DNA of 64,000 bases from Anaerolineae bacterium (GTDB lineage: Bacteria; Chloroflexota; Anaerolineae; CG2-30-64-16), in NCBI GenBank assembly GCA_034432655.1, contig DAOUBP010000096.1, forward strand, positions 1,849-65,848, written 5' to 3'. The position numbers and the translations under genes were made by a program. Below, one piece after another: positions 5,881-58,469 of the stretch; position 1 is the first letter of the stretch, and each line of letters begins with the position of its first letter. Under the pieces are notes generated by a model, which saw only the letters and a program-made list of their open reading frames with translations, had not been told where the DNA came from and made no database searches.

Positions 5881-5941
5881 CATGCGCGTAAGACTGTAAT
5901 CTGTGGTCGCCATCCCTTGTCTCGATGAAGTGGAGAGAACT

Positions 5942-10543: not shown

Positions 10544-10626
10544 AAGGTGCGCGTCGGAGGGACGGTCGGGCGCAATAGCGTGCCGAAAAGAGATGCCGCT
10601 CTGAAAAAGATCGCACCTACCCCGCG

Positions 10627-10668
10627 CCCCCCTCCCTATGTGGGAGGGGGAGCATCGTTTTCCTTTCT
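10627..10668 (+). terminator. Intrinsic terminator candidate downstream of paralog B
   Basis: cccccctccc-tatgt-gggaggggg hairpin followed by T-rich agcatcgttttcctttctcc. Confidence 0.45.
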
Positions 10669-10777
10669 CCTCGTAGGAGGTAGGATCATGACCGATGTGG
10701 GCTATTGTCTCGGGCACCGCCCTCAGCCCTCTGCTGAGGGCGGCACGCGTTGGAAGCGAGTATCACAAGTGGGGAAA

Positions 10778-10808
10778 TTGGGTAAACATCCCCGCTTTGT
10801 GCTATACT
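10778..10808 (+). promoter_or_regulatory. Candidate promoter for paralog C (ttgTGgcTATACT)
   Basis: tatact at 10803-10808 with upstream TG; AT-richer island in GC-rich DNA; AAGGAG RBS at 10829-10834. Confidence 0.3.
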
Positions 10809-10845
10809 CGCATTTTGACGGTATAAAAGGAGACATAGAACGACA

Positions 10846-16132: not shown

Positions 16133-16153
16133 TTCGCGTGAGGTGGATGTTTC

Positions 16154-20395: not shown

Positions 20396-20404
20396 ACAGG
20401 TGAG

Positions 20405-21379: not shown

Positions 21380-21404
21380 ATGACGGTCCTTGCAAGGATA
21401 AGGT

Positions 21405-22586: not shown

Positions 22587-22591
22587 CGCGC

Positions 22592-29833: not shown

Positions 29834-29845
29834 GAGACAAACAGT

Positions 29846-30421
29846 ATGGTGCGAATTCACTCAACTGCCGAGGTGTCGCCCAAGGCACAGGTCGGCGAAG
29901 GGACCTCTATCTGGCATCATTGCCAGGTGCGGGAGGGCGCGCGTATCGGCCGCGAATGCATTTTGGGCAAGAACGTCTACGTGGATTTCGACGTTTCCAT
30001 CGGTGACCGCGTCAAGATCCAAAATAACTGTTCGGTGTACCACGGCGCGACCCTGGAAGACGGCGTCTTCCTGGGCCCGCACGTCGTCATTACTAACGAC
30101 CTGTACCCGCGAGCCATCAACCCGGACGGTACCTTGAAGGGCAACGATGACTGGGAGGTCGGCCTGGTGCGCATCTGTTACGGTGCATCTATTGGCGCGC
30201 GTTCGGTCATTCTGCCCGGTGTGACGGTCGGCCGCTTCGCGATGGTGGGTGCCGGGGCCGTGGTGACGCGGGATGTGCCGCCGCAAGGCCTGGTGGTAGG
30301 CGCCCCGGCGCGGCTGATCGGCTATGTGTGCATCTGTGGACGGCGGCTGACGGCTGAAGGGGGCGAGTTGGTGTGTGGCCATTGTGGCCGGCGTTTTAGC
30401 GATCCACCATCTGGCACGTGA
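29846..30421 (+). CDS. Hexapeptide-repeat sugar N/O-acetyltransferase with C-terminal Cys4 zinc-ribbon tail
   Basis: LbH repeats (IGRECILGKNVYVDFDVSIGDRVKIQNNCSVY...); tail C-I-C-GRR...C-GH-C-GRR. Confidence 0.7.
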   Translation: MVRIHSTAEVSPKAQVGEGTSIWHHCQVREGARIGRECILGKNVYVDFDVSIGDRVKIQNNCSVYHGATLEDGVFLGPHVVITNDLYPRAINPDGTLKGNDDWEVGLVRICYGASIGARSVILPGVTVGRFAMVGAGAVVTRDVPPQGLVVGAPARLIGYVCICGRRLTAEGGELVCGHCGRRFSDPPSGT

Positions 30422-30467
30422 CAGGCGTCGCAGCTTGCCGCGGACAAGCACTGGCGGAGCAAAGCAT

Positions 30468-31703
30468 ATGCAACGACGGGCCTTGAGCCAGGACGCCTGG
30501 TTGATCTTCGGGTTGGCGTTGGTGTTACGCCTCGCCTATTTGATCTGGTTTGTCGGGCCTGATTACCGGCCGGAGTTCGACGCGCGTGAGTATCACGAGA
30601 TCGCGGTCAGCCTGGCCACAGGCCGCGGCTTTGCCCTGGCCGACGGCACGCCGACAGCCATCCGGCCGCCGCTCTTCCCGCTGGTTCTTGCTGCAGTCTA
30701 CCGGCTGACCGGCAGCGAAAACTATGCCGCGGGGCTGGTTGTGCAGGCTTTGATCGGCGCCGGGATCGCCCTGGCGGTCCTGGTCGTGGGCCGGCGCTTC
30801 AGCCGACAGGTTGGCGTGCTGGCCGGCCTGATGGCGGCCACTTATCCTTTGTTGATCTTCGCGGGCGGCAGCTTGCTGACCGAGCCGTTGTTCATCCTGC
30901 TGGTGGTTCTGGCCATGGATGCCGCCCTGGCTGGCCTGGCGAAACCATCAGTTAAGCAGGGCGTGTGGTTGGGGCTCTGGTTGGGCCTGGCGGGGCTGGC
31001 GCGGCCCAACGGCCTGTTGCTGGCGTTCTTCTTGGCCGCCTGGGTACTGCTGGTGGCCAGGGGAAGCTGGCGTCAGCGCTTCAACATGATCGCAAGCGCT
31101 GCAGCCCTGGTGGCATTGGTGACATTGCCGTGGGTCATGCGTAACTACTTCGTTTTTCGCTCGTTCATTCCCTCGACGACTATGGGCGGCGCGGTGCTGT
31201 TCGGGGCTTATAACGAACGCGTCCTGAACGAACCGGCCCTACGTGGGGACTGGGTTTCCCCGTGCGAGGTGCCTGGCGCGGGCTGGACCTGTGGGCTGGA
31301 TGAAGTCAGCCGGGATGCGGCCTGGCGGGCGTTGGCGGTGGTGTTTGTCCGTGATCATCTGGCCGACTTGCCCTTGATGGTCTGGTGGCGTTTCATCAAG
31401 TTCTGGCACCTTTATCCGTTTACCCACGGTTTTCCGGCCAACGTGGGCTTCTGGTACTATGCAGCGGTGGCGCTGCTGGCGGTTGGCGGCATATGGGCGT
31501 TGCGCAGGTCGTGGCGGCAGGTGGGCGTGTTGCTGGCGGTCATCGCGTGCTTCATGGCCACCGCGCTGATTTTTTGGGGCGGCTTTCGCATGCGCGCGCC
31601 GGCCGAGCCGGCGTTGATCGTGTTGGCAGCCGGAGCCCTGGCCGCCCTCTGGCGCAGCAAGTTGTCACAGACCGCCGGGTTTGGAAAGATGGCCGATTTA
31701 TGA
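30468..31703 (+). CDS. GT-C fold membrane glycosyltransferase (PMT_2 / ArnT-like, GT39/GT83-type)
   Basis: GGAGC RBS; start chosen at MQRRALSQ (longest ORF from 30375 overlaps upstream gene); early loop DAREYHEIA; ~11 TM. Confidence 0.55.
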   Translation: MQRRALSQDAWLIFGLALVLRLAYLIWFVGPDYRPEFDAREYHEIAVSLATGRGFALADGTPTAIRPPLFPLVLAAVYRLTGSENYAAGLVVQALIGAGIALAVLVVGRRFSRQVGVLAGLMAATYPLLIFAGGSLLTEPLFILLVVLAMDAALAGLAKPSVKQGVWLGLWLGLAGLARPNGLLLAFFLAAWVLLVARGSWRQRFNMIASAAALVALVTLPWVMRNYFVFRSFIPSTTMGGAVLFGAYNERVLNEPALRGDWVSPCEVPGAGWTCGLDEVSRDAAWRALAVVFVRDHLADLPLMVWWRFIKFWHLYPFTHGFPANVGFWYYAAVALLAVGGIWALRRSWRQVGVLLAVIACFMATALIFWGGFRMRAPAEPALIVLAAGALAALWRSKLSQTAGFGKMADL

Positions 31704-43990: not shown

Positions 43991-46900
43991 ATGCTGCTGA
44001 GGCAAGATCGTCCCCGCTCCCAACGCAGAAGGTGGATCACGATGAGATTTGGTTTTGACCAGGGAAATCCTGAACCGCATGGCCGGCATTGCCGCCGGCG
44101 GTTCGTGACGCGTATCTGGTGGCTTGCTGTCATTGTCATTGGTTTCGTCGCCCTTCAGAGCTGTCGGCCCTTGCCGACCCCGCCGCCACCTCCTACCGCC
44201 CCCCCTTCTCCCTTTCCTGCAGAAACCATTCCTGCAGCGTTGACCGCCACGCCCGAGGCGGCCCGACCATTTATCTCTCTTGAGGAACTGAATGTGGTAC
44301 CGGGCGCATATGTGGCCTGGAGCCTGCCGGAGTACGCTGTGCCACCAACCCGCTCGCCCGACGATCCTCTCTATCCGGGCCATCATATCCTGGGCCTTGA
44401 TTGCCTCACCTATCTCGATCAGGTATGGCCGGTGGAGAACAGTATCTCGTGGGCGAGCTACGACAGGTGTTTGAACGCGCTGGAGCGCCGAAAAGTCAAA
44501 CTGCCCGACGGCAGAGAGGTCCCCCAGCCGATGATACTGACTTTGCCGCCATCCTTCATGGATCCGGGCGGCAGCGGCACCGCGCGTGACCCTTTTATCA
44601 AGCTAATCGGCCCGGCGTGGATGCTGAACGACACTTACAGGGTCCGGTTTCAGACTGCAGATGGAAAATGGTATCAGACCTGGCGCTATGATCAGGCGTT
44701 CACTGACGCGATGGTCCGCTTGATTCGCGCGGCAGCAGAGCGCTATGACCGCCATCCTGGCGTCAGCCTGGTGCGCCTTTACGTGGGCTTCCAAGGGGAA
44801 AATCAGCCCGTGCGGGCGTGTGAGCCCTGGTGGCCCGGTTCTCCCGACTGTGGTGCGCAGCAAGAAGTGTTGCCTGCTGCCGAGAAAGTGGTTTCCTGTG
44901 CCACCTATACAACGTTTGTCCGACGGCTGGCCCTGGCTGCCGGCGAGGCGTTTGCACACAAGCCGGTGGCGGTGATGATGTCGGTACAGCCGTGTGCCAA
45001 TCTAAGCGGCACCATTCATCGGTGGGAGTTGTTTGATCAGAATCTGCGGCCGCTCCCTGTCGGCTATGTGAACGCCGGCCTGCAGCCGGACCGGCCGGAC
45101 GCCATGGAGGCGCCCGACAAGCGCTGGGCCGGATGGCGTCTGTACAGCACCGGTCAGACGATCGCTGCTTGGGGGGCGCCCTATGTAGCGGAATATGCCG
45201 AAAATCCTTCGGGCGGCAGCGTGGGCGCACAGGATCGCAGTCAGTACATGTATTGGAATACCCTGATGGCAGCTGGCTCTGGTGCCCGCTGGGTGCTACA
45301 TCATCCCGCCTGGCAAGGTTACGATTCTGCGCCCATGTGGGAGGTGGTGGACTATTGGCTTAACAGCCCGGCGCGTGCCTGGCTGGTCTTTCGTGATCGT
45401 GAGTATCCTACTTTTGAATACAGCCCAGAGGACGGCAACTCGGGCTGGATCGGCGATTTCGCCCGCTACTTGATTCTTCTCAACCCACAGGATGCCCCAC
45501 AGGCATGCGCTCCGGAGGTGCAAGCCACCGCCCAAGCGGCCAACACCGCTGTCGCTAAATGGCAACGGGTTACGCCGGCCTGTCCCGGCCCCCTGCTGCC
45601 AACGCCGGCCATCACACCCGCTTCGACCCCCAGCCCGGGGGCTGATACGCTAAACCGACTTTTCAACCGTCAAGCCCGTCGGCTAGATCCCGGCAGAAAG
45701 CTATACATCGCGGCTTCCGAAAACTGGCAGGGTTTCGGGACGATCGGGCAAATAACTGTCACGGTATCTTATCTCGATATTGGCACCACGCCGTTTGCGG
45801 TCATCCTCCCCGACGGGCGAGGAGCGGAACAAGTGCAAGCAGTTCCCAAGCAGGGCTCGGGGCTCTGGAAACGATTTACGTGGTCGCAGACGGCACAGGT
45901 CGCCAATCTCCTGGACGGCAGCGCATTCATGGTGATCGCTAATCCGGCTGCAGGACAGGCTACGTATCTGCACGAAGTGTTTGTGGATCTCGGGAATAAT
46001 GATCCAGAGATACCTTTTCTGCCTGTTACGCCGACGGTGTTTGTACCAACATCGGTGCCTCCGGCAACCTCAACACCGTCAGCGAGCCCGTCGCCCCTGC
46101 CTTTGGCCACCAGGACACCTACAGCCAGCGCCACGTTGAGCCCAACGCGCACCTCCACCCCGACGGCCACCAGGACCCCCACGCCCAGCGCCACGTTGAG
46201 CCCAACGCGCACCTCCACCCCGACGGCCAGCCAGACTCTGACCCCTGCTGCTGCTACAACGTCGGCCAGCCCCCTGACCTGTATGCCTCGCCCTGTCGCC
46301 AATGTGCTGTTGGGGCCCGGGCCCAAGGGTATTGCTGCGGGTGAGGACGGCTTCTTTGTCGGTTTGTTCAACTTGAGCCAGGTGGCGCGGCTGCGTCTTG
46401 CCGGAGAAGGAGTCGTCTGGCTGGTTAAATCCGGCCCGGGGCGCACCAACGGCCTGGCGGCCTGGCAAAATATCGTTGTGGCTACCAACCGGGATGAAGG
46501 GACGGTCACATTGCACGATGCCGGCACCGGCGTGCCATTGGCAATCTTGCGCGTGGGCGCTCTACCGTGGGGCGTCGCTGCGGCAAACGGCCGGGCTTAT
46601 GTGGCCAATTTCGGCGACAACACGGTCGCGGTGCTGGATCTGGTTCAGCGGGGTGTAGTGGCTGTGGTTCCTGTGGCGTCCGCTCCTGTAACGGCCGTTG
46701 CCGATGATCGTCAAGCTTTTGTGTTGCATCTGGACGGGCAGATCACACAGCTAGACAGCACAGGACGTCTGTTGGCTCAGGCCAAGGCCCAGGCGCCCAA
46801 CGCACGCGGCCTGGCCTGGGACCAACTGCGAAACCGTCTTTATGTCGGCAGCCAGTCAGGCGTTGTGGTTGCGCTGGATGCATCCACCTTACGGGAGGTG

Positions 46901-48175
46901 GCCCGTTTTCCGTTGCCCGGGCCGGCCTACGCGCTGGCGTTCAACCCCGGCACGGGACGCGTGTTTGCCGTGGACGCAGTCAACGATCGCCTGTATGTCA
47001 TCGAGCCTGATGGCAGCGGCGTGGGACAGCTCTCTCTGCCTCCACAAGGTGCAACGGAAGGCGGCCAGGGAATCGGGGTGGCGAGGAATCGCATCGCGGT
47101 TGCCAACTACGCAGCCAGTAGCGTGAGCTATTTCGATGATGCGGTGTGCGAAGCCAGATTGACCCCGGAAGCTGTCACGCCGAGTCGTACTGCGACTGCC
47201 TCCCGAACGCCAACGCCATCGGTCACCCGCACTTCCACGTCGTCTCCCACCCATACCCCGGTGCCGACCGCTACGGCTGCTGCGCCCCTGACACCCACGC
47301 CGACCCTCAGCCCCACCTCATCACCCACCCCGGCTGTGGTGCGCGCTAAGATCGAGATCGTCTGGCCGCACGGGGGTGCTTCGGTGCGTGAGGCCCGGCT
47401 GGCCAATATCACGGCCTATCTTCTGGCAGGGGATGGCTCGGATCCGGCAGCAGCGTTGAACCCGCCGCCCTGCGATTGGCGCCCTACCGTCAGATTGTGG
47501 GCTGCTCTGAATACGGAGCCGGCCAGGCCGATCGCTGTGGGCCAGAAGCGGTTTGTGAACGAGGAGGGGCGAGTATTCCCGGCCTGGGACTTCAACGATG
47601 TGGACGTCAGCCTGGCACGCGACCTTTCTAACAAGTTGACCTTCTTCGTCACGGTGGATGGGGTCCGCACCCTGCACAACATCTGGGTTCATGCCGCGGA
47701 CGCGCGCACGCTGTTCCCTCAGCAGGCCGTGCCCGATGGCACCACTGCGCGCCGGCCGACGGCCGTGGATGCCCGGATCCAGATCGTCTGGCCTCACGAT
47801 AATCTGCCGGTAAATCAGGCCAGATTGGCCAACATCAACTCGGTGCTGTTTCAACAAGGCACCTTGCAGGCTTTCGCGCCGGATGTGGCCTGGTCGCCGA
47901 CGGTGCGGCTGCATTGGGCTTTGAACCACGAACCTGAACCGCCGACGGGCAGCGGTTTGATCGGCACCCCGCGCATCGTAAACGCCACGAACGGAACGCG
48001 TTTCCTGGCTTGGGATTTCAACGACGTGGATGTCAGCCCGGCGCAAGACGCGCTCAATAAGCTCTTTTTCTGGATCAGCGTGGATGGCGTTCCGACTTAC
48101 AGTAACGTCTGGGCGCACGGCCAGGATGCCCGCACGATTTTCCCTCAGCCTGACGTGCTGAACAGCTGTCGTTGA
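43991..48175 (+). CDS. Giant secreted/lipoprotein-like protein: GH-like domain paralog 3 + TP linker + YVTN-type beta-propeller + TP linker + two tandem ~150-aa C-terminal repeats (no YLPLV motif)
   Basis: VSLVRLYVGFQGENQP block homologous to GH-like paralogs; YVANFGDNTVAVLD, LYVGSQSGVVVALD, RVFAVDAVNDRLYVIE propeller blades; repeats KIEIVWPHGGASVREARLANI... / RIQIVWPHDNLPVNQARLANI... Confidence 0.8.
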   Translation: MLLRQDRPRSQRRRWITMRFGFDQGNPEPHGRHCRRRFVTRIWWLAVIVIGFVALQSCRPLPTPPPPPTAPPSPFPAETIPAALTATPEAARPFISLEELNVVPGAYVAWSLPEYAVPPTRSPDDPLYPGHHILGLDCLTYLDQVWPVENSISWASYDRCLNALERRKVKLPDGREVPQPMILTLPPSFMDPGGSGTARDPFIKLIGPAWMLNDTYRVRFQTADGKWYQTWRYDQAFTDAMVRLIRAAAERYDRHPGVSLVRLYVGFQGENQPVRACEPWWPGSPDCGAQQEVLPAAEKVVSCATYTTFVRRLALAAGEAFAHKPVAVMMSVQPCANLSGTIHRWELFDQNLRPLPVGYVNAGLQPDRPDAMEAPDKRWAGWRLYSTGQTIAAWGAPYVAEYAENPSGGSVGAQDRSQYMYWNTLMAAGSGARWVLHHPAWQGYDSAPMWEVVDYWLNSPARAWLVFRDREYPTFEYSPEDGNSGWIGDFARYLILLNPQDAPQACAPEVQATAQAANTAVAKWQRVTPACPGPLLPTPAITPASTPSPGADTLNRLFNRQARRLDPGRKLYIAASENWQGFGTIGQITVTVSYLDIGTTPFAVILPDGRGAEQVQAVPKQGSGLWKRFTWSQTAQVANLLDGSAFMVIANPAAGQATYLHEVFVDLGNNDPEIPFLPVTPTVFVPTSVPPATSTPSASPSPLPLATRTPTASATLSPTRTSTPTATRTPTPSATLSPTRTSTPTASQTLTPAAATTSASPLTCMPRPVANVLLGPGPKGIAAGEDGFFVGLFNLSQVARLRLAGEGVVWLVKSGPGRTNGLAAWQNIVVATNRDEGTVTLHDAGTGVPLAILRVGALPWGVAAANGRAYVANFGDNTVAVLDLVQRGVVAVVPVASAPVTAVADDRQAFVLHLDGQITQLDSTGRLLAQAKAQAPNARGLAWDQLRNRLYVGSQSGVVVALDASTLREVARFPLPGPAYALAFNPGTGRVFAVDAVNDRLYVIEPDGSGVGQLSLPPQGATEGGQGIGVARNRIAVANYAASSVSYFDDAVCEARLTPEAVTPSRTATASRTPTPSVTRTSTSSPTHTPVPTATAAAPLTPTPTLSPTSSPTPAVVRAKIEIVWPHGGASVREARLANITAYLLAGDGSDPAAALNPPPCDWRPTVRLWAALNTEPARPIAVGQKRFVNEEGRVFPAWDFNDVDVSLARDLSNKLTFFVTVDGVRTLHNIWVHAADARTLFPQQAVPDGTTARRPTAVDARIQIVWPHDNLPVNQARLANINSVLFQQGTLQAFAPDVAWSPTVRLHWALNHEPEPPTGSGLIGTPRIVNATNGTRFLAWDFNDVDVSPAQDALNKLFFWISVDGVPTYSNVWAHGQDARTIFPQPDVLNSCR
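46124..46229 (+). repeat. Perfect ~46-bp direct duplication with 60-bp period inside a linker
   Basis: ccagcgccacgttgagcccaacgcgcacctccaccccgacggcca at 46124 and 46184 (encodes SATLSPTRTSTPTA twice). Confidence 0.85.
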
Positions 48176-48232: not shown

Positions 48233-50428
48233 TCAATCCGTCAGCCGGAGCGCCGGGTCGCCCAGCAGGTTGAAGGTCAGGAGGATATCGCGGACGCCGC
48301 CCAGGGCTTGTGGTAGCGCAGACTGGGCCTGAAGCACCACCTCCCCCAGGGTACGGGACTGCGCGGCATTGTCGGACTTGGCCAGGGCGGCCGCCAGCTC
48401 GCGCGCCAGTAAGCGCTGGTCGGTAAGCACGGCTGCGCTGGAAGGCACCAGCGCGGCGACCGCACCACCGTTCCTGGCGCGCAGAAGCGTTTCCCCCAGC
48501 GAGGGTGTGCTGGGATGTTCGAACAGGCCGCTCAGGCACGTGACGGTGAAAACGACTGGCAGCCGGTCCTTGTTTTCCAGCCTGTCCACGTCTTCCACCC
48601 CGAAGATCTTCTCTTTGGCCCAAAGCGTCACACTGCCGTGGCCGAAGTAGCCGATCAGACCGCGGCCCTCAGCGAAAGCCCGGAGGAGCGCGTTTCGGGC
48701 TGCTGTCCCGTCTTCGGCGATCAAGACTTCATCGGCCGTGTAGCCGGCAAGGCGGTCAGCGAATTCCCGTGTCTCCTCCGCGAAGCCCGGTTCGTCGTTG
48801 TCGGCGATCAGCAACGCCTGTCCTCGCCACCCGGCCGCACCCTCCTGGCGTTCATAGGCCAGCGTCTTGGCCACCATCGTCGCCATCTGTTCGGCGGTTT
48901 GGGCGGGGAAACGGCCCACGGCCAGCGCAGGCCGGGCCTCTGGCCCTTCCTCGAGCAACGCGTACCAAACGTCGGAGCTGGTCCAGCCGGAGAAGGTGGT
49001 AAACACCGTCTGTGTCGGTACCAGGTCGCGCTCGGTTCCCTTCAGGTAGCCGCGCGGGTCGTAACTGGCGTCACCGGCCAGCAGCAAGAAGCGCGGGGCG
49101 GGGGGTGTCCAAGCGGCCAGGGCCTGCTGCACCAGCGCCTTGATCGCCTCGGGGCCGGCGCGGCCGAAGTTGAAGCGGTCGTAGACTTGTTCCACATCCA
49201 CGACCGCTACCCGCAACCCCTGGGCCTGGCGCGCAGCCACCAGCGGCTGTAGTGCCGCCCGAAACGCCGGCACTGTCACTATGATCATGTCCGCGCCGCC
49301 GGGCCAATTTCGCAAGTCGGTGCCAGAGGCGGCTGCCACGGCTGCGGGTCGGCGCAGCCCGCCTTCCGTTGCGATGATAAACCGGCGTGGGGTGCCGTCA
49401 GAAGCAAAGCGCAACACGCCTTCCCGCCATTCGTATCCCTGCAGCGCAATCGGGGCCGCAGGATCGGTGATGTCCCATAAGGCGACCGGTGGCGCAGCCA
49501 ATCGGACTGCAAAACCGGCAGCTGCCCCGGCAAATGTCAGGCCGCCACCATCAGCGGCCAACTCGCGGTGATAAGTGATCTCGATCCAGTCCAGCTGGAT
49601 GCTATCCACCGGGGCGCCGGTATCATTGGGCAGCCAGAGGCTCAGCCGGTTTTCGCCTGTCCGCAAGCTGCCGGAGGCCAGGGTTGTCTCGAGGATGTAC
49701 GGGCCCGGCCCGTCCCAATGCGCGTCGGCAGCCTGAGTGCCGTTTACCGTCAACACCAGGTGGTGGTCGGGGTCTATCGTCCCGGACGAAGAGCTGCCGT
49801 AGAGCCCCAGGCGCACGACGGCTTCACCGTCGGCTGCTTGTGGGACATCGAGGTTGATGGTCAATTCGGCCGGCGCGAAAAGTGCCTCCCAATACCAGCG
49901 GTTTTCACCGGGTTTGGCCAGCCCCCGGTAGTGGCGTCGTTGCTCACTGCGGAGGGTGTCGGTGACGGTTGCGGTCAGGGCGGTCTCAGCCGTGGGGGCG
50001 GCATCTCGTTCCACGATGGCCCGTGAGACCTGGTCCTCAGCTCTTCGGCTCAGCCAGTAGATGTTGCGGTCGGTGTATGCGTCCGGCCCCAACGCCTGGC
50101 CATAGAAGCGCAGGCTGCGGCCGCGGCCCTCGCCGGTTAACTGGAACGCGACCGGCTCGCCACCTGAAGTCAGGGTAAGCTGGTCGGGGCGCGCGCCGGC
50201 CAGGTCGAACCCGCTGCGCGCCAGCACGTCCGCCGAAACCGTGTAGATGCCGTCAGCTTCCACGGCCAACTTGATCGTCTCAACGTTGGGCGCCTGGGCA
50301 GGGGTGCACCCGGCCAGCAGCAGCAGGAGGATCAACAGAAACAGGGCCTGCGGGGCAGGTCCCACATGCGGCGCTGACTGTGCCAGGGCGGATGATTTCA
50401 ACCGGTTGGTAGCCAGGTTCCGATTCAT
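48233..50428 (-). CDS. Clan CD / family C25 (gingipain/PorU-like) cysteine peptidase, putative lipoprotein
   Basis: signal + lipobox LLLAGC; His motif GYFGHGSVTLWA and Cys motif LPVVFTVTCLSGLFEH; ends LLGDPALRLTD. Confidence 0.65.
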   Translation of the reverse strand: MNRNLATNRLKSSALAQSAPHVGPAPQALFLLILLLLLAGCTPAQAPNVETIKLAVEADGIYTVSADVLARSGFDLAGARPDQLTLTSGGEPVAFQLTGEGRGRSLRFYGQALGPDAYTDRNIYWLSRRAEDQVSRAIVERDAAPTAETALTATVTDTLRSEQRRHYRGLAKPGENRWYWEALFAPAELTINLDVPQAADGEAVVRLGLYGSSSSGTIDPDHHLVLTVNGTQAADAHWDGPGPYILETTLASGSLRTGENRLSLWLPNDTGAPVDSIQLDWIEITYHRELAADGGGLTFAGAAAGFAVRLAAPPVALWDITDPAAPIALQGYEWREGVLRFASDGTPRRFIIATEGGLRRPAAVAAASGTDLRNWPGGADMIIVTVPAFRAALQPLVAARQAQGLRVAVVDVEQVYDRFNFGRAGPEAIKALVQQALAAWTPPAPRFLLLAGDASYDPRGYLKGTERDLVPTQTVFTTFSGWTSSDVWYALLEEGPEARPALAVGRFPAQTAEQMATMVAKTLAYERQEGAAGWRGQALLIADNDEPGFAEETREFADRLAGYTADEVLIAEDGTAARNALLRAFAEGRGLIGYFGHGSVTLWAKEKIFGVEDVDRLENKDRLPVVFTVTCLSGLFEHPSTPSLGETLLRARNGGAVAALVPSSAAVLTDQRLLARELAAALAKSDNAAQSRTLGEVVLQAQSALPQALGGVRDILLTFNLLGDPALRLTD

Positions 50429-50434
50429 GGGCCC

Positions 50435-51496
50435 TTACCGCAGCCGGGATGCGCGCCAGATCAGCAAGCCGGCGATAGCCAGCATGCTGGCCACCGCAAT
50501 CGCACCAGCACCTAACACGAGTGTCAAACGGGTGTTGCGTGCCCCGCTTGGAGGGGCCGGCAGCGGTGTTGCCGCTGGCCGCGTGGCCATATTCTCCAGG
50601 ACCGATGTGGCTGCTGCTTGGGCGAAAACCTGTGGCGCGTTTGTGGCCTCCGGGACCACTGCCTGAGTGGACACCGGCCCTGGTGGGCTGGCCGTCGTCA
50701 GCGGTGCCGGTTCCCCCACGGTCGGCGACGGCACCGGCGCAGGGAGGGCGGTCTCGCCCGGCGTCGGGGTCTCGGTGGGAGCCGGGACAAAAGACCCTCC
50801 GCCGGAAGGTGTGGGCGTGGCAACTTGCCCGACCGGCACCGATGTCGCAGCAGGCTGAGGCGTGGGTGTCCAGGCAGTTCCCGGGCCGGTGGTGGCCGTC
50901 GGCGGCGGGACGGGGGTGTTGGTGAACTGCCGTGTAGCGGTGGGTGCCGGTTGCGAGCCGCCGGCAGGTGGCTGCGTTGTCATGGTGGCGGTGCGGGTGG
51001 CCGTCGCAATGGAAGGTGCGGTGGCTGTATGAGTCGCCGTCACCGTGGCAGTAGGTGTTGCCGTGGCAGTAGGGGTTGCCTCGGGCTCCAGGCCGATACC
51101 TGCGTTCACCGGGCCGGCGCGTTGTCCGGGCCCGGCCGAAGTCAGCTCTTCGAGCAGATAGTAATAGCGCACGCCCGGCACCACGTCCATGTCACGATAC
51201 TCGTAGGTCGCCCCGGTGAATCCGTCGCCCTGAGCCGGCAGCGTTTGAACCGGTGTCCCCCATGCTGCGTTAGCGGCCAGCGGCTCCAGTGCCCGATACA
51301 AATTGAAACCGGCGGTATCGAACTCAGTGGCCGTCTCCCACACCACCAGGATCGAGCCATCTGCTTGCGGCGTGGCCTCAAACCGCGCCAGGGTGATGTT
51401 GGCGTTGACGGACAGGCTGCTCAGGCCAAGAAGCAACGCTATGGCGATAACTGTATAGCTGGTAATGATGAAAGGCGATCGTTTGTTATGCATCAT
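50435..51496 (-). CDS. Secreted FN3-like-domain protein with long P/T-rich stalk and C-terminal TM anchor + RASRLR tail
   Basis: signal peptide; GSILVVWETATEFDTAGFNLYRA...RYYYLLEE beta-sandwich; C-terminus LTLVLGAGAIAVASMLAIAGLLIWRASRLR-stop. Confidence 0.65.
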   Translation of the reverse strand: MMHNKRSPFIITSYTVIAIALLLGLSSLSVNANITLARFEATPQADGSILVVWETATEFDTAGFNLYRALEPLAANAAWGTPVQTLPAQGDGFTGATYEYRDMDVVPGVRYYYLLEELTSAGPGQRAGPVNAGIGLEPEATPTATATPTATVTATHTATAPSIATATRTATMTTQPPAGGSQPAPTATRQFTNTPVPPPTATTGPGTAWTPTPQPAATSVPVGQVATPTPSGGGSFVPAPTETPTPGETALPAPVPSPTVGEPAPLTTASPPGPVSTQAVVPEATNAPQVFAQAAATSVLENMATRPAATPLPAPPSGARNTRLTLVLGAGAIAVASMLAIAGLLIWRASRLR

Positions 51497-51516
51497 GTCC
51501 GTTTGGATTGTTGTTT

Positions 51517-53829
51517 TCAGCGCGCGATTAACGGCAGATAGACCGGCGTCAGTCTTGGCCCCGGCAAACGCAGCGCCGGGTCGCCGAACAACGTCATGGT
51601 CGGGATCAGATAGTTCGCGCCGAACACCTGCGTATATTGCCGCTTGGCGATGATGAGCGCCCGGCCCAGTTCTCGTACGTTATCTTTGAATAGCACGTTC
51701 ATCAGGATTTTGCGGAAGTTTTGCTGATCGCTGGTAACGCCCAGGCCCGACGGTGAAATGGCTGCAATAGAGCCACCCCCGGCACGGCGGAGCATGACCT
51801 CGGCGATGCTGGCCAGGGCCGGATCAGTGTGCGCGAAGTAGCCATCCAGGCAGTTGAATGTCATCACCACCGGCAACATGTCGCCGTTGGTCAGGCCGGG
51901 CACGTAGTTGTTGCGCCAGATGGATTCATGGGCCCACCGCTCCGGCGCGCCATGACCGGCATACTGCACCAGCCAGACACCCGACTGCAGAGTATTGGAG
52001 ATGATCGCGCGGGTGGCCTCGATCTCGGCCGATGTGGCTGGGACCGCAGGCGGACTGCCCGGCAAATACGCTCGGATGATTTCCAGATCTTTGGGGATGT
52101 AATTCGCGATGATCTCGTCGGACACGGCCGGAAAGTCGCCGGCGGAATCGGGGTTATCGGCCACGAACAGGGCCCGCTGTTGCCATGCTGCCTGGCGTGT
52201 CGTCTGATCGTAGTTGATGATCTTCTCCACCACGGTCTGGGCTTCTTCCAGGGTGTTCACGGCCAGCCGCCCCACCGCAATTTCCGGCACCAGGTCGCCA
52301 TCCAGATCCCCGTAGTGCCCGTCCGCAGGCACCTCGCCCTGCCAGGGGTCTACCCAGGCCAGGTAGGGCGGCACGTGGTTGGGACCAGGAGGGTATTTGG
52401 CCGGGTTATAGCCCTTGAAATTCCAATCGCCATCTCCCAGCAAGGTCAGGTAGGCCGGCGCGGGCGATGCCCAGTGAGTGCTGGCCCAGTTGAGCATGGT
52501 CGGCACGGCCTTGGGGTGCAGGATGCCGTAGTTGAACTCGTCGTAGATGTCCCGCATCTCGGCCACCAGGGCCCGACGGCCGTTGGCGCGATGCCAGTCG
52601 GCCAGTTGGTTGGCGGCCGGCAGCAGCGCAGCCGAGGTGACGATCACAGCATCGGCGCCGCCGGGCGGATTGCGCAGGCCGGTGTCCGGGCGCAGGCGCA
52701 GCGAGGCCGGCTTTGTAAATGTAGCAGTCTCTTGCAGCCAGTAGCGCGCGCCGGCCTGGTCGTTGGACCGGAAGCGGACATCGAAGGTCGCGCCGACAGG
52801 TGTCGCAGTCGCGTTGATCAGGATGCGGGGCGCGTACGGGTTGGTGACATCCCAAATCGTTATTGCACTGCTGGTCCAGCCGTGGCTTTCGTATTCCTGC
52901 GGCCCGTTCAGCTCAGCAGTGAAATCCAGCCTGCCTTCCCAGGCGCGGAACAAACGACGATAGTCTATCTCCCAATAATTCGCATAAACATCATCACTGG
53001 TATTGCCGGGCATGGTCCAGGCGCCAACCTGCACCGTTGTCGTGGGATGAACCAGGAGACCGGCGGGCAGGGACGCAGTGAAAACCATGCGCTTTTTGTC
53101 CGACCAGGTCTGGTCAATAACGCTCAGGCCGTTGACCGACACGGTGGTGCGATGGTCCGGGTTGGGGCCGGTGTAGGCGCGGCCGATCTCTTCCAGCCGG
53201 AAAGTAGCGGGTGAGTCCGGGGCCGGGTAGGGCACGGTGTAGGGCAAGGTGACTGTAACGGCACTGCCAACGGACAGGGGCGGCCGCAGCCGGGCCCAGA
53301 ACCAGGTATCCTGGGTGTCGAGGATGAGGGTGTGTAACGTCCACCACTCTAGCGATTCCTCGGCGCGTAGGGTTGTGGGGAAGTCGGCCGGGGGTGTCAG
53401 ATCGCCGATAGGGGCGGCATCCACCTCGGCGATGCGTGGCCCGGCCGTGCCGCCGACCTCCAGCCAGTAGACGCGCTCATCCGTGTACTTCTGTTCCATT
53501 TCCGGCCCGCGGAACTTCTGGCCGAAGAAAAGGAGGTGGTCCCCGGGATCAAACGAGCCGTCGGCCTCACCGATCACCTGGATGGCGACCGGTTCGCCCA
53601 GGCTGCTGAGGGCGAAGGTGCGCGGATCAACGGCCGTCGGGTCTATCCCGGCCGCGGCCAGGTCGTCCGGCCCGATGCGCACGATGCCGTCGGCCGTCAC
53701 GCCGATGCGAAGGCGGATGGCCGTCGTCGGCTCGAGCGGCTGCGCTCGCGCTGCGGCATATCCCGGCGCCTGGGGGAGCACTGTCCACAGCAAGGCCAAC
53801 ATTAGCAGGAGGCGAAAGGTGAGTTTCAT
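51517..53829 (-). CDS. Clan CD / family C25-like cysteine peptidase carrying C-terminal YLPLIAR
   Basis: signal peptide MKLTFRLLLMLALLWTVLP; QYAGHGAPERWA and LPVVMTFNCLDGYFAH; ends LFGDPALRLPGPRLTPVYLPLIAR. Confidence 0.65.
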   Translation of the reverse strand: MKLTFRLLLMLALLWTVLPQAPGYAAARAQPLEPTTAIRLRIGVTADGIVRIGPDDLAAAGIDPTAVDPRTFALSSLGEPVAIQVIGEADGSFDPGDHLLFFGQKFRGPEMEQKYTDERVYWLEVGGTAGPRIAEVDAAPIGDLTPPADFPTTLRAEESLEWWTLHTLILDTQDTWFWARLRPPLSVGSAVTVTLPYTVPYPAPDSPATFRLEEIGRAYTGPNPDHRTTVSVNGLSVIDQTWSDKKRMVFTASLPAGLLVHPTTTVQVGAWTMPGNTSDDVYANYWEIDYRRLFRAWEGRLDFTAELNGPQEYESHGWTSSAITIWDVTNPYAPRILINATATPVGATFDVRFRSNDQAGARYWLQETATFTKPASLRLRPDTGLRNPPGGADAVIVTSAALLPAANQLADWHRANGRRALVAEMRDIYDEFNYGILHPKAVPTMLNWASTHWASPAPAYLTLLGDGDWNFKGYNPAKYPPGPNHVPPYLAWVDPWQGEVPADGHYGDLDGDLVPEIAVGRLAVNTLEEAQTVVEKIINYDQTTRQAAWQQRALFVADNPDSAGDFPAVSDEIIANYIPKDLEIIRAYLPGSPPAVPATSAEIEATRAIISNTLQSGVWLVQYAGHGAPERWAHESIWRNNYVPGLTNGDMLPVVMTFNCLDGYFAHTDPALASIAEVMLRRAGGGSIAAISPSGLGVTSDQQNFRKILMNVLFKDNVRELGRALIIAKRQYTQVFGANYLIPTMTLFGDPALRLPGPRLTPVYLPLIAR
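51520..51540 (-). other. C-terminal YLPLIAR motif (last 7 residues) of C25-like peptidase
   Basis: ...PGPRLTPVYLPLIAR-stop. Confidence 0.75.
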
Positions 53830-53896
53830 ATTCTTATTGTACCTCGTTTGTCACGCCCTGGCAAAGCGCTACGGTTGCGGCAGTGGAACTGACATG

Positions 53897-53921
53897 CCAG
53901 GCACCTCAAAGGTGCCTGGCA
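53897..53921. other. 10-bp-stem hairpin between M14 and C25 genes
   Basis: gccaggcacc-tcaaa-ggtgcctggc; no U-tract on the coding (-) strand. Confidence 0.3.
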
Positions 53922-53941
53922 CGTGACCGGCTGTTCTTGGG

Positions 53942-56056
53942 TCAGTTCCCGGCGGTCAGGGCAAAGCTGAACGCGGCGATGCGCGGGCCGGGTTCAGAGG
54001 CCGCAGCGCAAGCATTCGTCCCGCGCACAATGTAAAAGTGGTTGGCGGCCGGATCACCTGCGCCGTTCGGGTCATCGAAGGTTAGCGTCATGGTGCCCGT
54101 GAGCAGCACATCACCGATCTTGGTTGCGTTGGGGTCGCCAGGCAGGAAGTAGGGCTGAGCGCTCCGCCAGACTTCATAGGCGTCGTTGGCGGCCACGTGC
54201 ACCCAGGCCAGGCTGACCGTTGTGCCATGCAGCTCGGCGGTCAGGTTGGCCGGCGGCAAGGGGGTCATGCACGGGGATTCGATGGTCAGAAATACCGCTG
54301 TCGGGACCCCCCACTGGCCGTTGGTATCTTGTGCTTCGATGAAAAGGATGTGCCGGCCCGGGGCCCAGGCGGTGGTGTCCATGGAAGCGGTCAGGCCCTC
54401 GGCCGGCGCGTTGAACGAACCATCAGCTGCGCTCATCGGATGGGGAGTACCGTCTTGCCAGGAAGGCACATCTACGGTGTAACGGGCCGCCGCCACGTTC
54501 TGCGTCGGTTCGATGCCGTGGCCGTTGCTGTTGAACCGGCCGTCGTCGGCGGTTGCTGTGATGGTTACCGCCGTGCCACGTGTGATCGTGCCGGACCCGG
54601 CCACTGCGTTTATCACCTCGGGGCCGGCCGGATCCTGGTAAGGCCGTCGCGCCACCTTGAACGCGTACTTCAGGGCCGGCAGGTTGCGGGGCAGGACGTC
54701 GTTCTCGAAGGCGGAGCAGGACTGGAAGAAAGCCGTGCCCAGCTCGAAAGTGTAGGCTGCGATACCCAGGTCACCGTAGGCGAAGTCGTCGGTGGTGCCG
54801 GAGGCAGTGTAGAGGCACGGGCCTGCCGCGCACACTTCGTAACCGTTATAGAATCCGAACTTGCGGCCCAGGGTCTGAAGCTGGACATGGTTGGGCGCCT
54901 GCTGTGATGAGGTCCAACCCCAGGGGAAGAGCACCAGCTGGCTGTAGCTGTGCAGGGTGATCATCAGCCCTTCGGTGGTGGCAGGCGCGGGATCGGTATC
55001 TCCGGGTCCGCGTTGATCGGCGAAGAGGGCGCGTAGACGGCTTTCCAGTGTTTGCACTTCGGGTTCAGAACCCGCCGCGGGGCCGCGGTAGGTCTCGCTG
55101 CAGGCATCGCCGCTGCTGCCGCCCATGCCCCATTTGAAAGTGCTGTTGCGGTTCAGGTCGGTACCATAAGTATAACCGAACTGCGGATAACTGGCGGTAC
55201 ATCCGTCATCGTTGTCGGTGTTCTTGCGCCACGAGTCGCCGGCCTCGGCCTTCTTGCGGCCATCGGGGTTGGCCTGGAACACAACGTGCAGCTCGTAGCG
55301 ATCCAGCAACCAGGTGGTGTCGGCGTCCACACCGTAGTCGGCCACCAGCTTCTCAACGTAGCGCGCGGCCAGCTCGGCCGTGGTGTACTCGCGGGCGTGG
55401 ATGGCCGCCATCAGGAAGAAACGCGGCTTGGGGCCAGGGATCCCTTTGTTTGTCAGCGTCAGTTCGTAAAGGTCATAGCCGGCCGGCCCGCCTGGGGTTA
55501 CCTTGTCCCAGCTGTCGCCGATGTCGGTCCAGGTGGCCAGGTCGGGGTGTGCGGCCGCCAGCGCGGCCATGCTGTTGTAGGTCTCCTCCACGGTGCGGTA
55601 GCAGGGATAGCCGGGGATGCCGGTCGTCTGGCCGGGGGCCATCTGGCGCGGGGCCAGCAGCGCTTCGGTCTGCGCCTGATCAATCTCGATCCGATAGCCG
55701 GCTGCGAGCAACATCGCATAGCGCTGCGGGCTGAGCAACGCCAGTGCATACCCCTCGACGCGGTTTACCTCCCAGATGTCCAGTACTGTGGCGAGACGAT
55801 CCAGATCGGCTTTGTTCGTGTAGTAAATGCGACCGACAATGGGGCCGGTCGGTGGGGCCTCCTGTGCGACCCGGTTTGACGGGTCCGTGGTTGCGGATAC
55901 GGGTTGCTCTGCCGGCGTTACGCCGGGTTTTGACAGCGTGTCAAACGGCTGCTGTGGTGAGGGTGCGGCCGCCATAAGGGCTTGCGGCCAGACAGCTGCC
56001 GGGCCAAGCGCCAACAAGAAGCTGATGATGAGAACTACCCGCAAGAATGGACGCAT
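53942..56056 (-). CDS. M14 zinc carboxypeptidase with C-terminal beta-sandwich domains (last is the FN3-like domain shared with the S8 protease)
   Basis: start chosen at MRPFLRVVLIISFLLALGPAAVW with GGAAGG RBS (ORF opens at 56122); HAREYTTAE zinc-binding motif. Confidence 0.7.
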   Translation of the reverse strand: MRPFLRVVLIISFLLALGPAAVWPQALMAAAPSPQQPFDTLSKPGVTPAEQPVSATTDPSNRVAQEAPPTGPIVGRIYYTNKADLDRLATVLDIWEVNRVEGYALALLSPQRYAMLLAAGYRIEIDQAQTEALLAPRQMAPGQTTGIPGYPCYRTVEETYNSMAALAAAHPDLATWTDIGDSWDKVTPGGPAGYDLYELTLTNKGIPGPKPRFFLMAAIHAREYTTAELAARYVEKLVADYGVDADTTWLLDRYELHVVFQANPDGRKKAEAGDSWRKNTDNDDGCTASYPQFGYTYGTDLNRNSTFKWGMGGSSGDACSETYRGPAAGSEPEVQTLESRLRALFADQRGPGDTDPAPATTEGLMITLHSYSQLVLFPWGWTSSQQAPNHVQLQTLGRKFGFYNGYEVCAAGPCLYTASGTTDDFAYGDLGIAAYTFELGTAFFQSCSAFENDVLPRNLPALKYAFKVARRPYQDPAGPEVINAVAGSGTITRGTAVTITATADDGRFNSNGHGIEPTQNVAAARYTVDVPSWQDGTPHPMSAADGSFNAPAEGLTASMDTTAWAPGRHILFIEAQDTNGQWGVPTAVFLTIESPCMTPLPPANLTAELHGTTVSLAWVHVAANDAYEVWRSAQPYFLPGDPNATKIGDVLLTGTMTLTFDDPNGAGDPAANHFYIVRGTNACAAASEPGPRIAAFSFALTAGN

Positions 56057-56187
56057 CTCGGCCTTCCTTTCAGTGATGCTGGGAAATGGCGGTGGCAGAC
56101 CGCCTGCAAGTCTGCTCATCAAAAGGGTGTCTGTCCGCCCTGGCTATACCACGCGAGCCTGGGTGACCCCTGTCGCCTCCAGAAATT

Positions 56188-56203
56188 TGCGAAATGAATT
56201 TCG
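56188..56203. promoter_or_regulatory. 16-bp near-palindrome gcgaaatGAatttcgc in M14-S8 intergenic region
   Basis: 7-bp inverted arms; candidate operator or small terminator hairpin. Confidence 0.25.
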
Positions 56204-56217
56204 CGCGACATTGCGGG

Positions 56218-58320
56218 CTACGGGCGCGTCAGGGCAAAGTCGAATTCCCCGCCCCGATTTGATGGCAGCGACCGGCCGCCGCCCGCCCCGATGGCATACG
56301 CCACGTAGAAATGATTTACGGTTGGGTCGCCGATCGCGGCCGCGGCATCGGTGCAAGTGACGATCGCGCCTGCTTGGGTGCAGGCCGTGGGGAAGATTTC
56401 GATCCCTTCCGTGCCGGGCACGAAGTAGGGCGCAGTCCCGCGCCAGAGCTCGTACCCTGTCACGTTGCCGCTCAGCGCCGTCCATCCCAACTGCAAGCCT
56501 GCCACGGACCATTCGACGCGCAGGTCGGTCACTGCAGGGATGGGAACCAGCGCAAAGTCGTACCCGGTGGTCTGCCCACCCACAACGTACAAGGGTTCCG
56601 CGGTCCCAGGGTCGTAACCCGGCGTTGAGACCTCAACCCGGTACTTGCCCCACGGCTGGCTGAAGCTCCAACGGCCATCCCCCGCAGTGGTTGTATCTGC
56701 CAGAGGTGTGGCGCTGCCGGCCGCGAAAAGGGTCACCTGGACGTCGGCCAACGGCGCGCCTGTCTCGGCATCGGTGACGGTGCCCGTCAGCGTGCCGGGT
56801 TGGCCGAGCGACTGAATGGCCCGTTGGGCGTTGACGATGCCCCAGCCGTAGCCGTTGTTAGGCACTGCGCCGGGGGCCGGGCCGCAGGTGTCATAGGTTT
56901 TGGGGTCAGCTGTGCGGGCCAAAATCTCTTTGATCAAATCGGTCTGGCCACGCAGTGCCGGCTCAGCTGCAAGGAGCAGCGCGGCCACTCCGGCCACGTG
57001 GGGCCCGGCCATGCTGGTGCCCGACATGGTGCTGTACCTGGCGGATGTGCTGCTGGGCACGCTGGAGCGCACGCTCACTCCCGGTGCGCTGATGTTCGGC
57101 TTCAGAAACGTCTGACCGTTATAGGAGACCGGCCCGCGGCTGGAAAAGCTCGCCAGCCCGTCGGCCGAGTCTGTGGCGCCGACCGAGAATGCTGCCGGGT
57201 AGATAGCGGGGGGATCTACTACTGTGTTGCATGACGACCCGCTGTTGCCGGCCGAGACTACCACCAGGATGCCTGCTGCGTCGGCCGCGTTGAGGATCGG
57301 CTCGATCTCTGGCCCGGTGCACCCCTCGGACGGCGGACAGCCCCACGAGTTGTTGATGATGTCCGGCGCCTGGCTGGGATCGCCTTGGGCAGTGGTGCCA
57401 CCGACTGGATAAGGCGCGATCAACCATTCGAAGCATTCGATGTACGTGGAAGGCGTGCCGTAGCCGTTATTCATATTACGGCAGCCGATCCAGCGTGCGC
57501 CCGGCGCAACACCGATCGCGTTGGTTGCCGCTGCGGGCCAACCGGACGCGTCAGGCGCCAGGTCATTGCCGACCATGGTCCCCATGGTGTGCGTGCCGTG
57601 GGAGTTATCGTCGCACGGGGCCGGGCTATCTGCGCCGCAGGAGCTGCCCCCGGTATGAATGGCATCGTGCCAGTTGTAATCGTGGCTGACCGTGGCTGTA
57701 CCACGATCGTAGCCGCGGTAGGCGTTGATCAACGCCGGGTGGTCCCAGTCGTAGCCGGTGTCCTGGCCGGCCACCACCACACCCTGGCCGGTGATGCCCT
57801 GGCTCCAGGCCCACGGCGCCTTGACCCGGTTCACACCCCATTCGACCGCCTGTGGGCCGGCCAGGGCGGGCAGGGCTTCAGCGGGTTCGGGGATGGCGCG
57901 GTAAGGTGTGTCCGGCAGGATGGCAGTTACCTCGGGCAGCGTTGCCATCCTGGCGATTTGCGCCGTGGTCAGCCGCGCAGCCACCGCGTTCACGATCCAG
58001 AACGCGCGGTACGCGACCCGTTCGCGTTGCAATTGAGCGATCAGCGGCCTTTGGCTGCGTGCGGCTGCAGCGCGCAGCGTTTCGGCCACCCACCGGCCCC
58101 GTGCAACCTTGTCCGATAGACCGTATGCAGGGCTCAGGTCAGGTTGGGGGCCAAGTAAGATCAGGACATCGGCCGCGCCGTCCTGTGCCAGCAGCGTGCG
58201 CACGCGCGGGTCAATTGCAACGGAAGAGCCGTCCTCAGCAACCGCCGGCCTGGCTGATCCGGCCAGGAGTGCCAGGAGCAGCCACCCTGCCAGCACCGCG
58301 CGCAGGCAATTCAGCGTCAT
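56218..58320 (-). CDS. S8 subtilisin-like serine peptidase with C-terminal FN3-like domain
   Basis: start chosen at MTLNCLRAVLAGWLLLALLA with GAGGAGGA RBS (ORF opens at 58377); catalytic D (VVAGQDTGYD), H (HGTHTMGT), S (GTSMAGPHVAG). Confidence 0.8.
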   Translation of the reverse strand: MTLNCLRAVLAGWLLLALLAGSARPAVAEDGSSVAIDPRVRTLLAQDGAADVLILLGPQPDLSPAYGLSDKVARGRWVAETLRAAAARSQRPLIAQLQRERVAYRAFWIVNAVAARLTTAQIARMATLPEVTAILPDTPYRAIPEPAEALPALAGPQAVEWGVNRVKAPWAWSQGITGQGVVVAGQDTGYDWDHPALINAYRGYDRGTATVSHDYNWHDAIHTGGSSCGADSPAPCDDNSHGTHTMGTMVGNDLAPDASGWPAAATNAIGVAPGARWIGCRNMNNGYGTPSTYIECFEWLIAPYPVGGTTAQGDPSQAPDIINNSWGCPPSEGCTGPEIEPILNAADAAGILVVVSAGNSGSSCNTVVDPPAIYPAAFSVGATDSADGLASFSSRGPVSYNGQTFLKPNISAPGVSVRSSVPSSTSARYSTMSGTSMAGPHVAGVAALLLAAEPALRGQTDLIKEILARTADPKTYDTCGPAPGAVPNNGYGWGIVNAQRAIQSLGQPGTLTGTVTDAETGAPLADVQVTLFAAGSATPLADTTTAGDGRWSFSQPWGKYRVEVSTPGYDPGTAEPLYVVGGQTTGYDFALVPIPAVTDLRVEWSVAGLQLGWTALSGNVTGYELWRGTAPYFVPGTEGIEIFPTACTQAGAIVTCTDAAAAIGDPTVNHFYVAYAIGAGGGRSLPSNRGGEFDFALTRP

Positions 58321-58469
58321 AAGGTCCTCCTCAAAGAGTTGCGCTATACAACTCATTCCCCTGAGGCGGGAGGTCATTGCTGTTCTAATCCTCTGGGAGG
58401 ATCAGGCACAGAGGGTATGTCTGATGGCCAAGTGTTGATGACCGGCTGGCAATTCAGATCCGTAAAATC

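Follow-up and report, generated by a model that had tools for sequence, protein, structure and literature searches.

PorU, a peptidase with a C25 catalytic domain, is the C-terminal signal peptidase/sortase of type IX secretion in the Bacteroidota. It acts on a C-terminal sorting signal, an Ig-like domain of approximately 80 residues, and bears that signal itself. It removes the signal and attaches its cargo to a polysaccharide, the anionic lipopolysaccharide (A-LPS). Other systems, such as PEP-CTERM/exosortase and LPXTG/sortase, mark many exported proteins with one short C-terminal signal, often placed after a Pro/Thr-rich linker. In these systems the signal is tripartite (a motif, a transmembrane (TM) helix and a basic cluster), and the enzymes are polytopic membrane proteins or sortase-fold transpeptidases. 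This article examines a 64,000-nucleotide stretch of DNA from an Anaerolineae bacterium (contig DAOUBP010000096.1; 'the window'), in which two PorU-like C25 peptidases are encoded together with proteins that end in a tail of the type YLPLVxR. The peptidases are called C25-A (770 residues) and C25-B (731 residues); the gene between theirs encodes TMp, a 353-residue protein with a fibronectin type III (FN3)-like domain and a TM helix. By analogy with PorU, the three proteins may form a complex on the outer face of the membrane that processes the C-termini of tail-bearing proteins and attaches them, a reading that falls a little short of an even chance.

The tail motif itself is not new. It has been named in NCBIfam NF050076, 'YLP-box putative sorting motif-containing protein' (sort_motif_YLP), an 11-position model of a C-terminal ...YLPLVxR on exported proteins that is catalogued only as a motif. 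Literature searches, including PorU with Chloroflexi and Chloroflexota sorting signals, returned no publication on the YLP-box, and no description of the three-gene cassette or of its link to this motif. No cognate enzyme model for the YLP-box was found either; the NCBIfam search matched none to either C25 protein. In sludge, sediments and soils, filamentous Chloroflexota (Anaerolineae, Caldilineae) occur in large numbers, and a wide range of large hydrolases is displayed on their cells.

C25-A and C25-B are paralogues with 31% identity over their full length. Both match Peptidase_C25 (Pfam PF01364) along the whole model (positions 1-374) with 262 and 279 bits, well over the gathering score of 23. 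The preliminary description of this DNA had recognised the clan-CD His/Cys dyad in both proteins, and this is borne out: His626 and Cys660 of C25-A (motifs GHGA and TFNC) and His597 and Cys631 of C25-B (GHGS and TVTC) align to H211 and C244 of RgpB ('YTGHGS' and 'FDVACVNG') and to the matching motifs of PorU. It had also named loss of these residues in orthologues as one of two findings that would speak against its reading. They are kept; His is present in 67/67 and Cys in 66/67 genome-derived C25-A orthologues, each is found in 45/46 C25-B orthologues, and His626 and Cys660 are invariant across 42 diverse homologues. Both proteins are thus clan-CD C25 peptidases with an intact, conserved dyad, for which activity is predicted from sequence. 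Some homologues carry the NCBI labels 'C25 family cysteine peptidase' or 'Gingipain R1 precursor'.

Over the whole chain, the closest characterised relative is PorU rather than the gingipains, as judged from sequence matches and a structure model. PorU (6za2) is the best PDB sequence match of C25-A and of C25-B. An AlphaFold model was made for C25-A (pLDDT 91.7, pTM 0.87); the fold of C25-B is predicted from its 31% identity to C25-A. The catalytic domain of the model has the caspase-like α/β fold. In Foldseek, the model aligns to PorU 6za2 over 806 columns (E 9e-32), covering a homologous N-terminal β-sandwich as well as the catalytic domain. The gingipains RgpB and Kgp (MEROPS C25) also share the catalytic domain and dyad, secretion and a cargo-type C-terminal sorting signal with the proteins discussed here, but only their catalytic domain aligns (388 columns, E 1e-18 to 1e-14), and neither a gingipain prodomain nor an IgSF domain is present. 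The comparison with RgpB and PorU that the preliminary description had proposed thus confirms the dyad and places PorU closest.

The likeness has clear bounds. For the NCBIfam PorU model (NF033707), whose cut-off is 420 bits, the two proteins score 257 and 264, with query residues 41-760 aligned to model positions 9-737; for PorU2 the scores are 179 and 158 bits, against a cut-off of 450. Model positions from about 740 to 1095, which hold the C-terminal domains and the C-terminal domain signal for secretion by the type IX system (T9SS), are matched by neither protein. C25-A and C25-B are therefore PorU-like but not PorU, because the N-terminal and catalytic regions are shared while the C-terminal domains and the T9SS signal are absent. 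They also differ from PorU in being two paralogues, one of them a lipoprotein, that come with an FN3/TM partner of their own. Among the genes of the window, no member of a T9SS family was detected (PorV, PorZ, PorQ and the translocon make up this context), and the host belongs to the Chloroflexota, not to the Bacteroidota.

The two peptidases also differ from each other at their ends. Both finish 4-15 residues past a GDPALRL strand, the tail of C25-A excepted. There, C25-A runs on with ...PGPRLTPVYLPLIAR and its last residues are TPVYLPLIAR. C25-B has an N-terminal LLLAGC lipobox with Cys41; among its homologues, a lipobox-like N-terminus is found in 94/113, and nearly all end 4-7 residues past GDP. 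The shared GDPALRL end, the YLPLIAR tail of C25-A and same-tail cargo in the window had all been reported in the preliminary description and are found as reported. Cleavage after an upstream Arg or Lys was considered and is unsupported; Arg specificity cannot be assumed because the S1 residue of RgpB, Asp163, is not conserved, being aligned to Gly in C25-B and Pro in C25-A in pairwise HMMER alignments.

The tail of C25-A is shared by five other proteins of the window (Table 1), all six lying at most 52 kb from the cassette. Across 1.2 Mb of related DNA, 47 open reading frames (ORFs) carry the tail pattern at their C-terminus, where its internal frequency in proteins would predict about 0.33; the YLP tail is a real signal, conserved at the C-termini of many Sec-exported proteins. 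A set of 120 unique examples gives the consensus [RK][RK][VI]-Y-L-P-L-V-L-R, and the proposed recognition pattern is written [RK][RK][VI]-Y-L-P-L-V-x-R. Half of the tails (60/120) stop exactly at the Arg and the others 1-5 residues further; neither a TM segment nor a basic cluster follows. At position +6, Arg or Lys is found in 85/117 tails. The candidate signal is only 7-10 residues long. In the window cargo proteins, it follows long Pro/Thr-rich (PT) linkers, as in wall-spanning anchored proteins. The NF050076 model matches only one of the window proteins, the product of 40301-43822 (residues 1162-1172), with 10.5 bits against a cut-off of 15. Elsewhere, an unbiased metagenome scan for an exact YLPLVLR-stop returned about 40 real genes, which are very diverse, have short flanks and include one C25 and one S8 peptidase.

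TMp gave no match in searches of Pfam and NCBIfam with its 353 residues. Its domain is predicted to be an FN3-like sandwich; all top folds matched by the AlphaFold2 model (pLDDT 76.6, built from only 4 sequences) are FN3, at a weak Foldseek E of about 1e-3. The FN3-like family numbers 21,494 representatives (E up to 1e-3). Of the best 149, at least 53 terminate in a TM anchor, and in 26 the domain is immediately followed by a terminal YLP tail. The same exchange of TM anchor for tail is found in close TMp homologues and cassette-adjacent paralogues (P0121, P0122, L002 4096-4587, L003 12289-12735, L050 and L053). The tail behaves as an alternative cell-surface anchoring signal, because tail and TM anchor interchange in these FN3 paralogues.

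Two further observations concern TMp-like proteins. The Pro/Thr-rich stalk of TMp (50435-51100) has short motifs that are conserved in the orthologue alignment (A2), namely PTATRQFTNTP, TPQVF and R-N-[TS] right before the Gly-rich TM helix. A plain linker would not be expected to contain them, and they might be sites of recognition or modification. Giant proteins of 1800-3000+ residues, which recur in several metagenomes (loci L081, L090, L098, L103 and L139), carry a TMp-like FN3 domain ('PYDGTWWYWLADVD...HGPV') that is followed directly by YLPLVLR.

The genes for C25-A, TMp and C25-B form a cassette that is conserved across filamentous Chloroflexota. A genome scan with one genome per species yielded 78 loci, with 10-kb flanks retrievable. 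All are in Chloroflexota metagenome-assembled genomes (MAGs), from Anaerolineae, Caldilineales, Thermoflexales, some Herpetosiphonaceae and MAGs labelled Chloroflexia. Among the 50 loci with at least 4 kb of DNA downstream of C25-A, a TMp homologue follows in 43 and C25-B in 44. The order persists among homologues as distant as about 31% identity, in Anaerolineae, Caldilineales and Thermoflexales alike. One pair of homologues lies on a 9165-bp contig with the NCBI label 'Nitrososphaerales archaeon' (P0054, a C25-A ending in ...YLPSVRR, and P0229, a C25-B); mis-binning of a Chloroflexota contig is the most likely explanation, and not a cassette in an archaeon.

In the window, the cassette is preceded by genes for an M14 carboxypeptidase and an S8 subtilase, and the preliminary description had treated the five as one protease island. 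The five co-oriented minus-strand genes are present exactly at the coordinates and spacings it gave (in the order S8, M14, C25-A, TMp, C25-B, the gaps are 95, 112, 20 and 6 bp), and all five products have N-terminal export signals. As a unit the island does not hold, since conservation is limited to the three-gene core. S8 and/or M14 are found upstream of the cassette in only about 5/78 loci, with S8 beside it only in L009 and L011. The five-gene island is a local arrangement around a conserved core, because S8 and M14 seldom accompany the cassette; they are facultative neighbours. A promoter-like site upstream of C25-A is compatible with the cassette being its own transcription unit; the signal is weak, with 3 such sites found in the region and 1.3 expected.

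Both neighbours carry the motifs of their peptidase families. The S8 protein has the triad motifs DTG206, HGTH260 and GTSMA453, and M14 the HxxE zinc motif at 242-245 (H242/E245). In M14, Asp445 (codon 54788-54790) occupies the position of Asp255 in carboxypeptidase B (CPB), and the best PDB match is 3prt, a CPB-mimicking variant of carboxypeptidase T; from this one pairwise alignment, M14 is predicted to prefer C-terminal Arg or Lys, the residues that end most YLP tails, and could trim them. The C-termini of the two proteins (56218-56500 and 53942-54200) share an unannotated FN3-like domain, '...NHFY.V....G.S..SN..GEFDFALT'. An S8 homologue (L107 3026-4888) has a YLP tail in place of this terminal domain, and 10/120 C25-A homologues end in the 'GEFDFALT' domain instead of the tail, as do S8 and M14 in the window. 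The domain may be a third alternative module for surface retention.

Within the cassette, the tail is confined to one of the two peptidases. It is carried by 68/120 database homologues of C25-A and by 30-36/67 genome orthologues, distant ones included; for C25-B the count is 0/166 (0/120 database homologues and 0/46 genome orthologues). PorU likewise bears the signal on which it acts, as C25-A bears the YLP tail. In the proposed mechanism, C25-A, TMp and C25-B would assemble at the outer surface of the cytoplasmic membrane into a processing complex, which would recognise the C-terminal YLP tail of Sec-exported proteins and cleave at or near it; the new C-terminus would then be passed to an envelope acceptor, by analogy with PorU, and this acceptor might be a polysaccharide made by the Wzx/Wzy locus nearby. 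Since C25-B is placed independently of the tail, it would be the founder enzyme, and C25-A would itself be sorted by its tail, as PorU carries its own T9SS signal. Complex formation, the tail as substrate, cleavage or transpeptidation and the identity of the acceptor are all steps that we infer.

The C25 pair with its stalk protein is a plausible candidate enzyme for YLP-box processing. The sortase-like role put forward in the preliminary description is partly supported. The PorU likeness and the tail as a real signal speak for it, with added support from the conserved cassette, the contrast between a lipoprotein and a usually tail-bearing paralogue, and the exchange of tail for TM anchor; the processing link between the C25 pair and the tail is circumstantial, and the tail is undocked in the model. 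A fuller version, in which the cassette is dedicated YLP-box sorting machinery, a PorU-type cysteine transpeptidase that works without type IX secretion, cleaves the 7-10-residue tail and covalently attaches dozens of exported enzymes to a surface polymer or lipid, is slightly more doubtful, though still a serious possibility.

A number of observations weigh against a sorting role, and several of them fit a different account, namely that the cassette serves for proteolysis or maturation outside the cell, to acquire nutrients or to activate other secreted hydrolases, with C25-A as one YLP-box cargo among many and the tail enzyme, if there is one, elsewhere and unrelated to C25. About 43% of C25-A homologues lack the tail, and five cassette loci (L004, L005, L010, L028 and L061) show none within 22 kb. 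Tail proteins are very diverse and mostly not encoded beside C25 genes; paralogues of cassette proteins aside, they show no clear enrichment in the 10 kb around it. Only 1 of the roughly 40 metagenome YLPLVLR-stop genes encodes a C25 protein, and no other flank, short as these flanks are for judging linkage, holds the cassette. Both C25 proteins fall below the PorU cut-off and lack its C-terminal domains, and the tail has none of the TM-plus-basic segment that retains sortase and exosortase substrates. The model of C25-A leaves residues 761-770 undocked and disordered (pLDDT about 55), which speaks neither for nor against binding. Moreover, by analogy, the tail on C25-A could equally mark cargo, as in the gingipains, which are T9SS cargo, or a self-sorted enzyme such as PorU. 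C25 proteins outside the Bacteroidota are generally read as secreted proteases; in the window, S8, M14 and a further S8 (60784-64000) adjoin the cassette, and the S8 homologue at L107 is itself tail-bearing. The proteolytic account leaves unexplained why a tail-bearing and a lipid-anchored paralogue are strictly paired with a membrane stalk protein in distant lineages, why the architecture is PorU-like and not gingipain-like, and why TM anchor and tail alternate in the cassette's FN3 protein. It is a real contender, although we would not rely on it.

It is also conceivable, though unlikely, that the tail stays uncleaved and serves as a short non-covalent anchor, for example by strand docking on an envelope polymer, a component of an S-layer or sheath, or an FN3-like receptor, in which case the C25 pair would have other substrates, such as Pro/Thr-rich stalks or propeptides. 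The small size of the tail, its lack of a TM or basic retention segment, its place after long flexible PT linkers and its interchange with a TM anchor would all suit such an anchor, and the half of tails that stop exactly at Arg suggest that a free carboxy-terminus matters. Against this, the AlphaFold2 model shows no docked conformation of the C25-A tail, the receptor is hypothetical and, to our knowledge, the characterised short C-terminal sorting motifs (those of the sortase, exosortase, rhombosortase and PorU systems) are all processed proteolytically. Proteolytic processing by M14 and S8 in place of C25, with the CPB-like M14 removing the terminal Arg or Lys and trailing residues, draws on Asp445 and on the frequency of Arg/Lys at position +6. 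It is highly improbable; these enzymes adjoin the cassette in so few loci, a carboxypeptidase alone cannot sort or anchor a protein, and the specificity call comes from a single pairwise alignment.

If C25-A, TMp and C25-B do act as a PorU-like sorting complex, PorU-type sortase chemistry would reach beyond the Bacteroidota and the T9SS, and PorU-like 'sortases' would be an ancient, cross-phylum class of protein-anchoring enzymes. This would also offer a means of predicting which proteins make up the surface proteome in a phylum that is largely uncultured. For the surface retention of Chloroflexota hydrolases, the conserved PorU-like pair with its membrane stalk partner is a concrete candidate. 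Should the sorting role be refuted, the cassette would still be a widespread and undescribed Chloroflexota protease module.

Table 1. Cassette, neighbouring genes and tail-bearing proteins in the window (positions count from its first nucleotide)
Feature	Position	Strand	Evidence or remarks
C25-A, secreted PorU-like C25 cysteine peptidase, 770 aa, signal peptide	51517..53829	-	Pfam PF01364, E 1e-77
C25-A catalytic codons	His626 51952-51954; Cys660 51850-51852	-	
YLP-box tail of C25-A, YLPLIAR, residues 764-770, followed by stop codon	51520..51540	-	
TMp, signal peptide, FN3-like domain, Pro/Thr-rich stalk, C-terminal TM helix, basic end	50435..51496	-	
TMp parts	FN3-like domain about 51098-51397; TM helix 50456-50527	-	
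C25-B, PorU-like C25 cysteine peptidase, 731 aa, no tail	48233..50428	-	Pfam, E 1e-82
C25-B codons	lipobox Cys41 50306-50308; His597 48638-48640; Cys631 48536-48538	-	
Promoter-like site (TTGCCA-17-TACAAT), 112-bp gap before C25-A	53836..53864	-	weak
M14 zinc carboxypeptidase, carboxypeptidase T-like, C-terminal FN3-like '...FSFALT' domain	53942..56122	-	Pfam, E 1e-49
S8 subtilase, I9 propeptide, CarboxypepD_reg, C-terminal FN3-like 'GEFDFALT' domain	56218..58377	-	Pfam, E 5e-48
Probable lipoprotein with β-propeller region, 1394 aa, convergent, directly downstream of C25-B	43991..48175	+	
Three large Sec-exported YLP-tailed proteins	2038-5763, 5903-10543, 10846-13914	+	
Two further YLP-tailed proteins	32950-36012, 40301-43822	+	
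Wzx/Wzy-type exopolysaccharide locus	14633..31703	+	flippase, AsnB-like, GT4s, methyltransferase, Wzz, Wzy, PMT_2

The surroundings of the cassette include a complete Wzx/Wzy exopolysaccharide (EPS) locus at a distance of 17-34 kb, a possible source of the acceptor polymer. C25 genes lie near a polysaccharide locus here, and the cargo of PorU is joined to A-LPS; PEP-CTERM signals, too, are found next to EPS loci. Among the genome loci, EPS or glycosylation genes are present within 10 kb of the cassette in 16 of the 38 loci of at least 15 kb, which is suggestive, not universal. Together, the polysaccharide genes of the window (14633-31703 and 37805-40268, plus strand) encode five or more GT4 glycosyltransferases, two PMT_2 GT-C enzymes and a priming sugar transferase. 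They are bracketed by the YLP-tailed proteins, an arrangement that recalls PEP-CTERM/EPS loci. The three tailed proteins at 2038..13914 combine a PHB-depolymerase-like esterase with DNRLRE/CBM96, BNR and SdrD_B domains, a PT linker and the tail. The interval between the two others encodes a PMT_2 glycosyltransferase, a sugar transferase and a protein (36059-37789) that is related to the cargo proteins. This related protein (576 residues, SdrD_B/DNRLRE, plus strand) ends in ...AYLVPLAASNSR, which may be a YLP-like tail that has degenerated and gained one inserted residue. The window genes include none for an exosortase, a sortase or a rhombosortase; a membrane protein at 708-2015 was considered as a sorting enzyme and ruled out, being GT87-like.

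The 1394-residue protein downstream of C25-B may belong to the cassette system; a homologue stands in the same convergent position in 15/37 loci. It has an ALQSC lipobox-like sequence, a match to the YVTN β-propeller repeat and duplicated C-terminal domains, and is without family assignment. In 27 loci of other genomes, a TM-anchored paralogue of the TMp FN3 domain (about 150 residues) followed by an HprK-related/ScmC-like P-loop protein is encoded 1-3 kb upstream of C25-A (for example L059 7309-8624 and L039 4201-4650), and the genes for C25-A and TMp are sometimes separated by one for a PqqD/ScmD-like chaperone. The window has neither this pair nor the PqqD/ScmD-like gene. Further recurrent neighbours elsewhere are a TMEM260-like O-mannosyltransferase with DUF4012, Wzz/BY-kinase (bacterial tyrosine kinase) with LMW-PTP (low-molecular-weight protein tyrosine phosphatase), and paired ATP-binding cassette (ABC) exporters. 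The window encodes a radical SAM protein with a weak SPASM match (31832-33040, plus strand), whose gene runs with its 3' end into the beginning of the gene for the YLP-tailed protein at 32950-36012. Taken with the HprK-like and PqqD-like proteins encoded near the cassette elsewhere, it hints at peptide-modification genes near the system.

The second exported S8 subtilase (60784-64000, plus strand) runs off the end of the window with at least 1072 residues and has an I9 propeptide, a PA domain, fn3_6 and DUF11; the minus-strand ORF at 61096-63882 is probably its antisense shadow.

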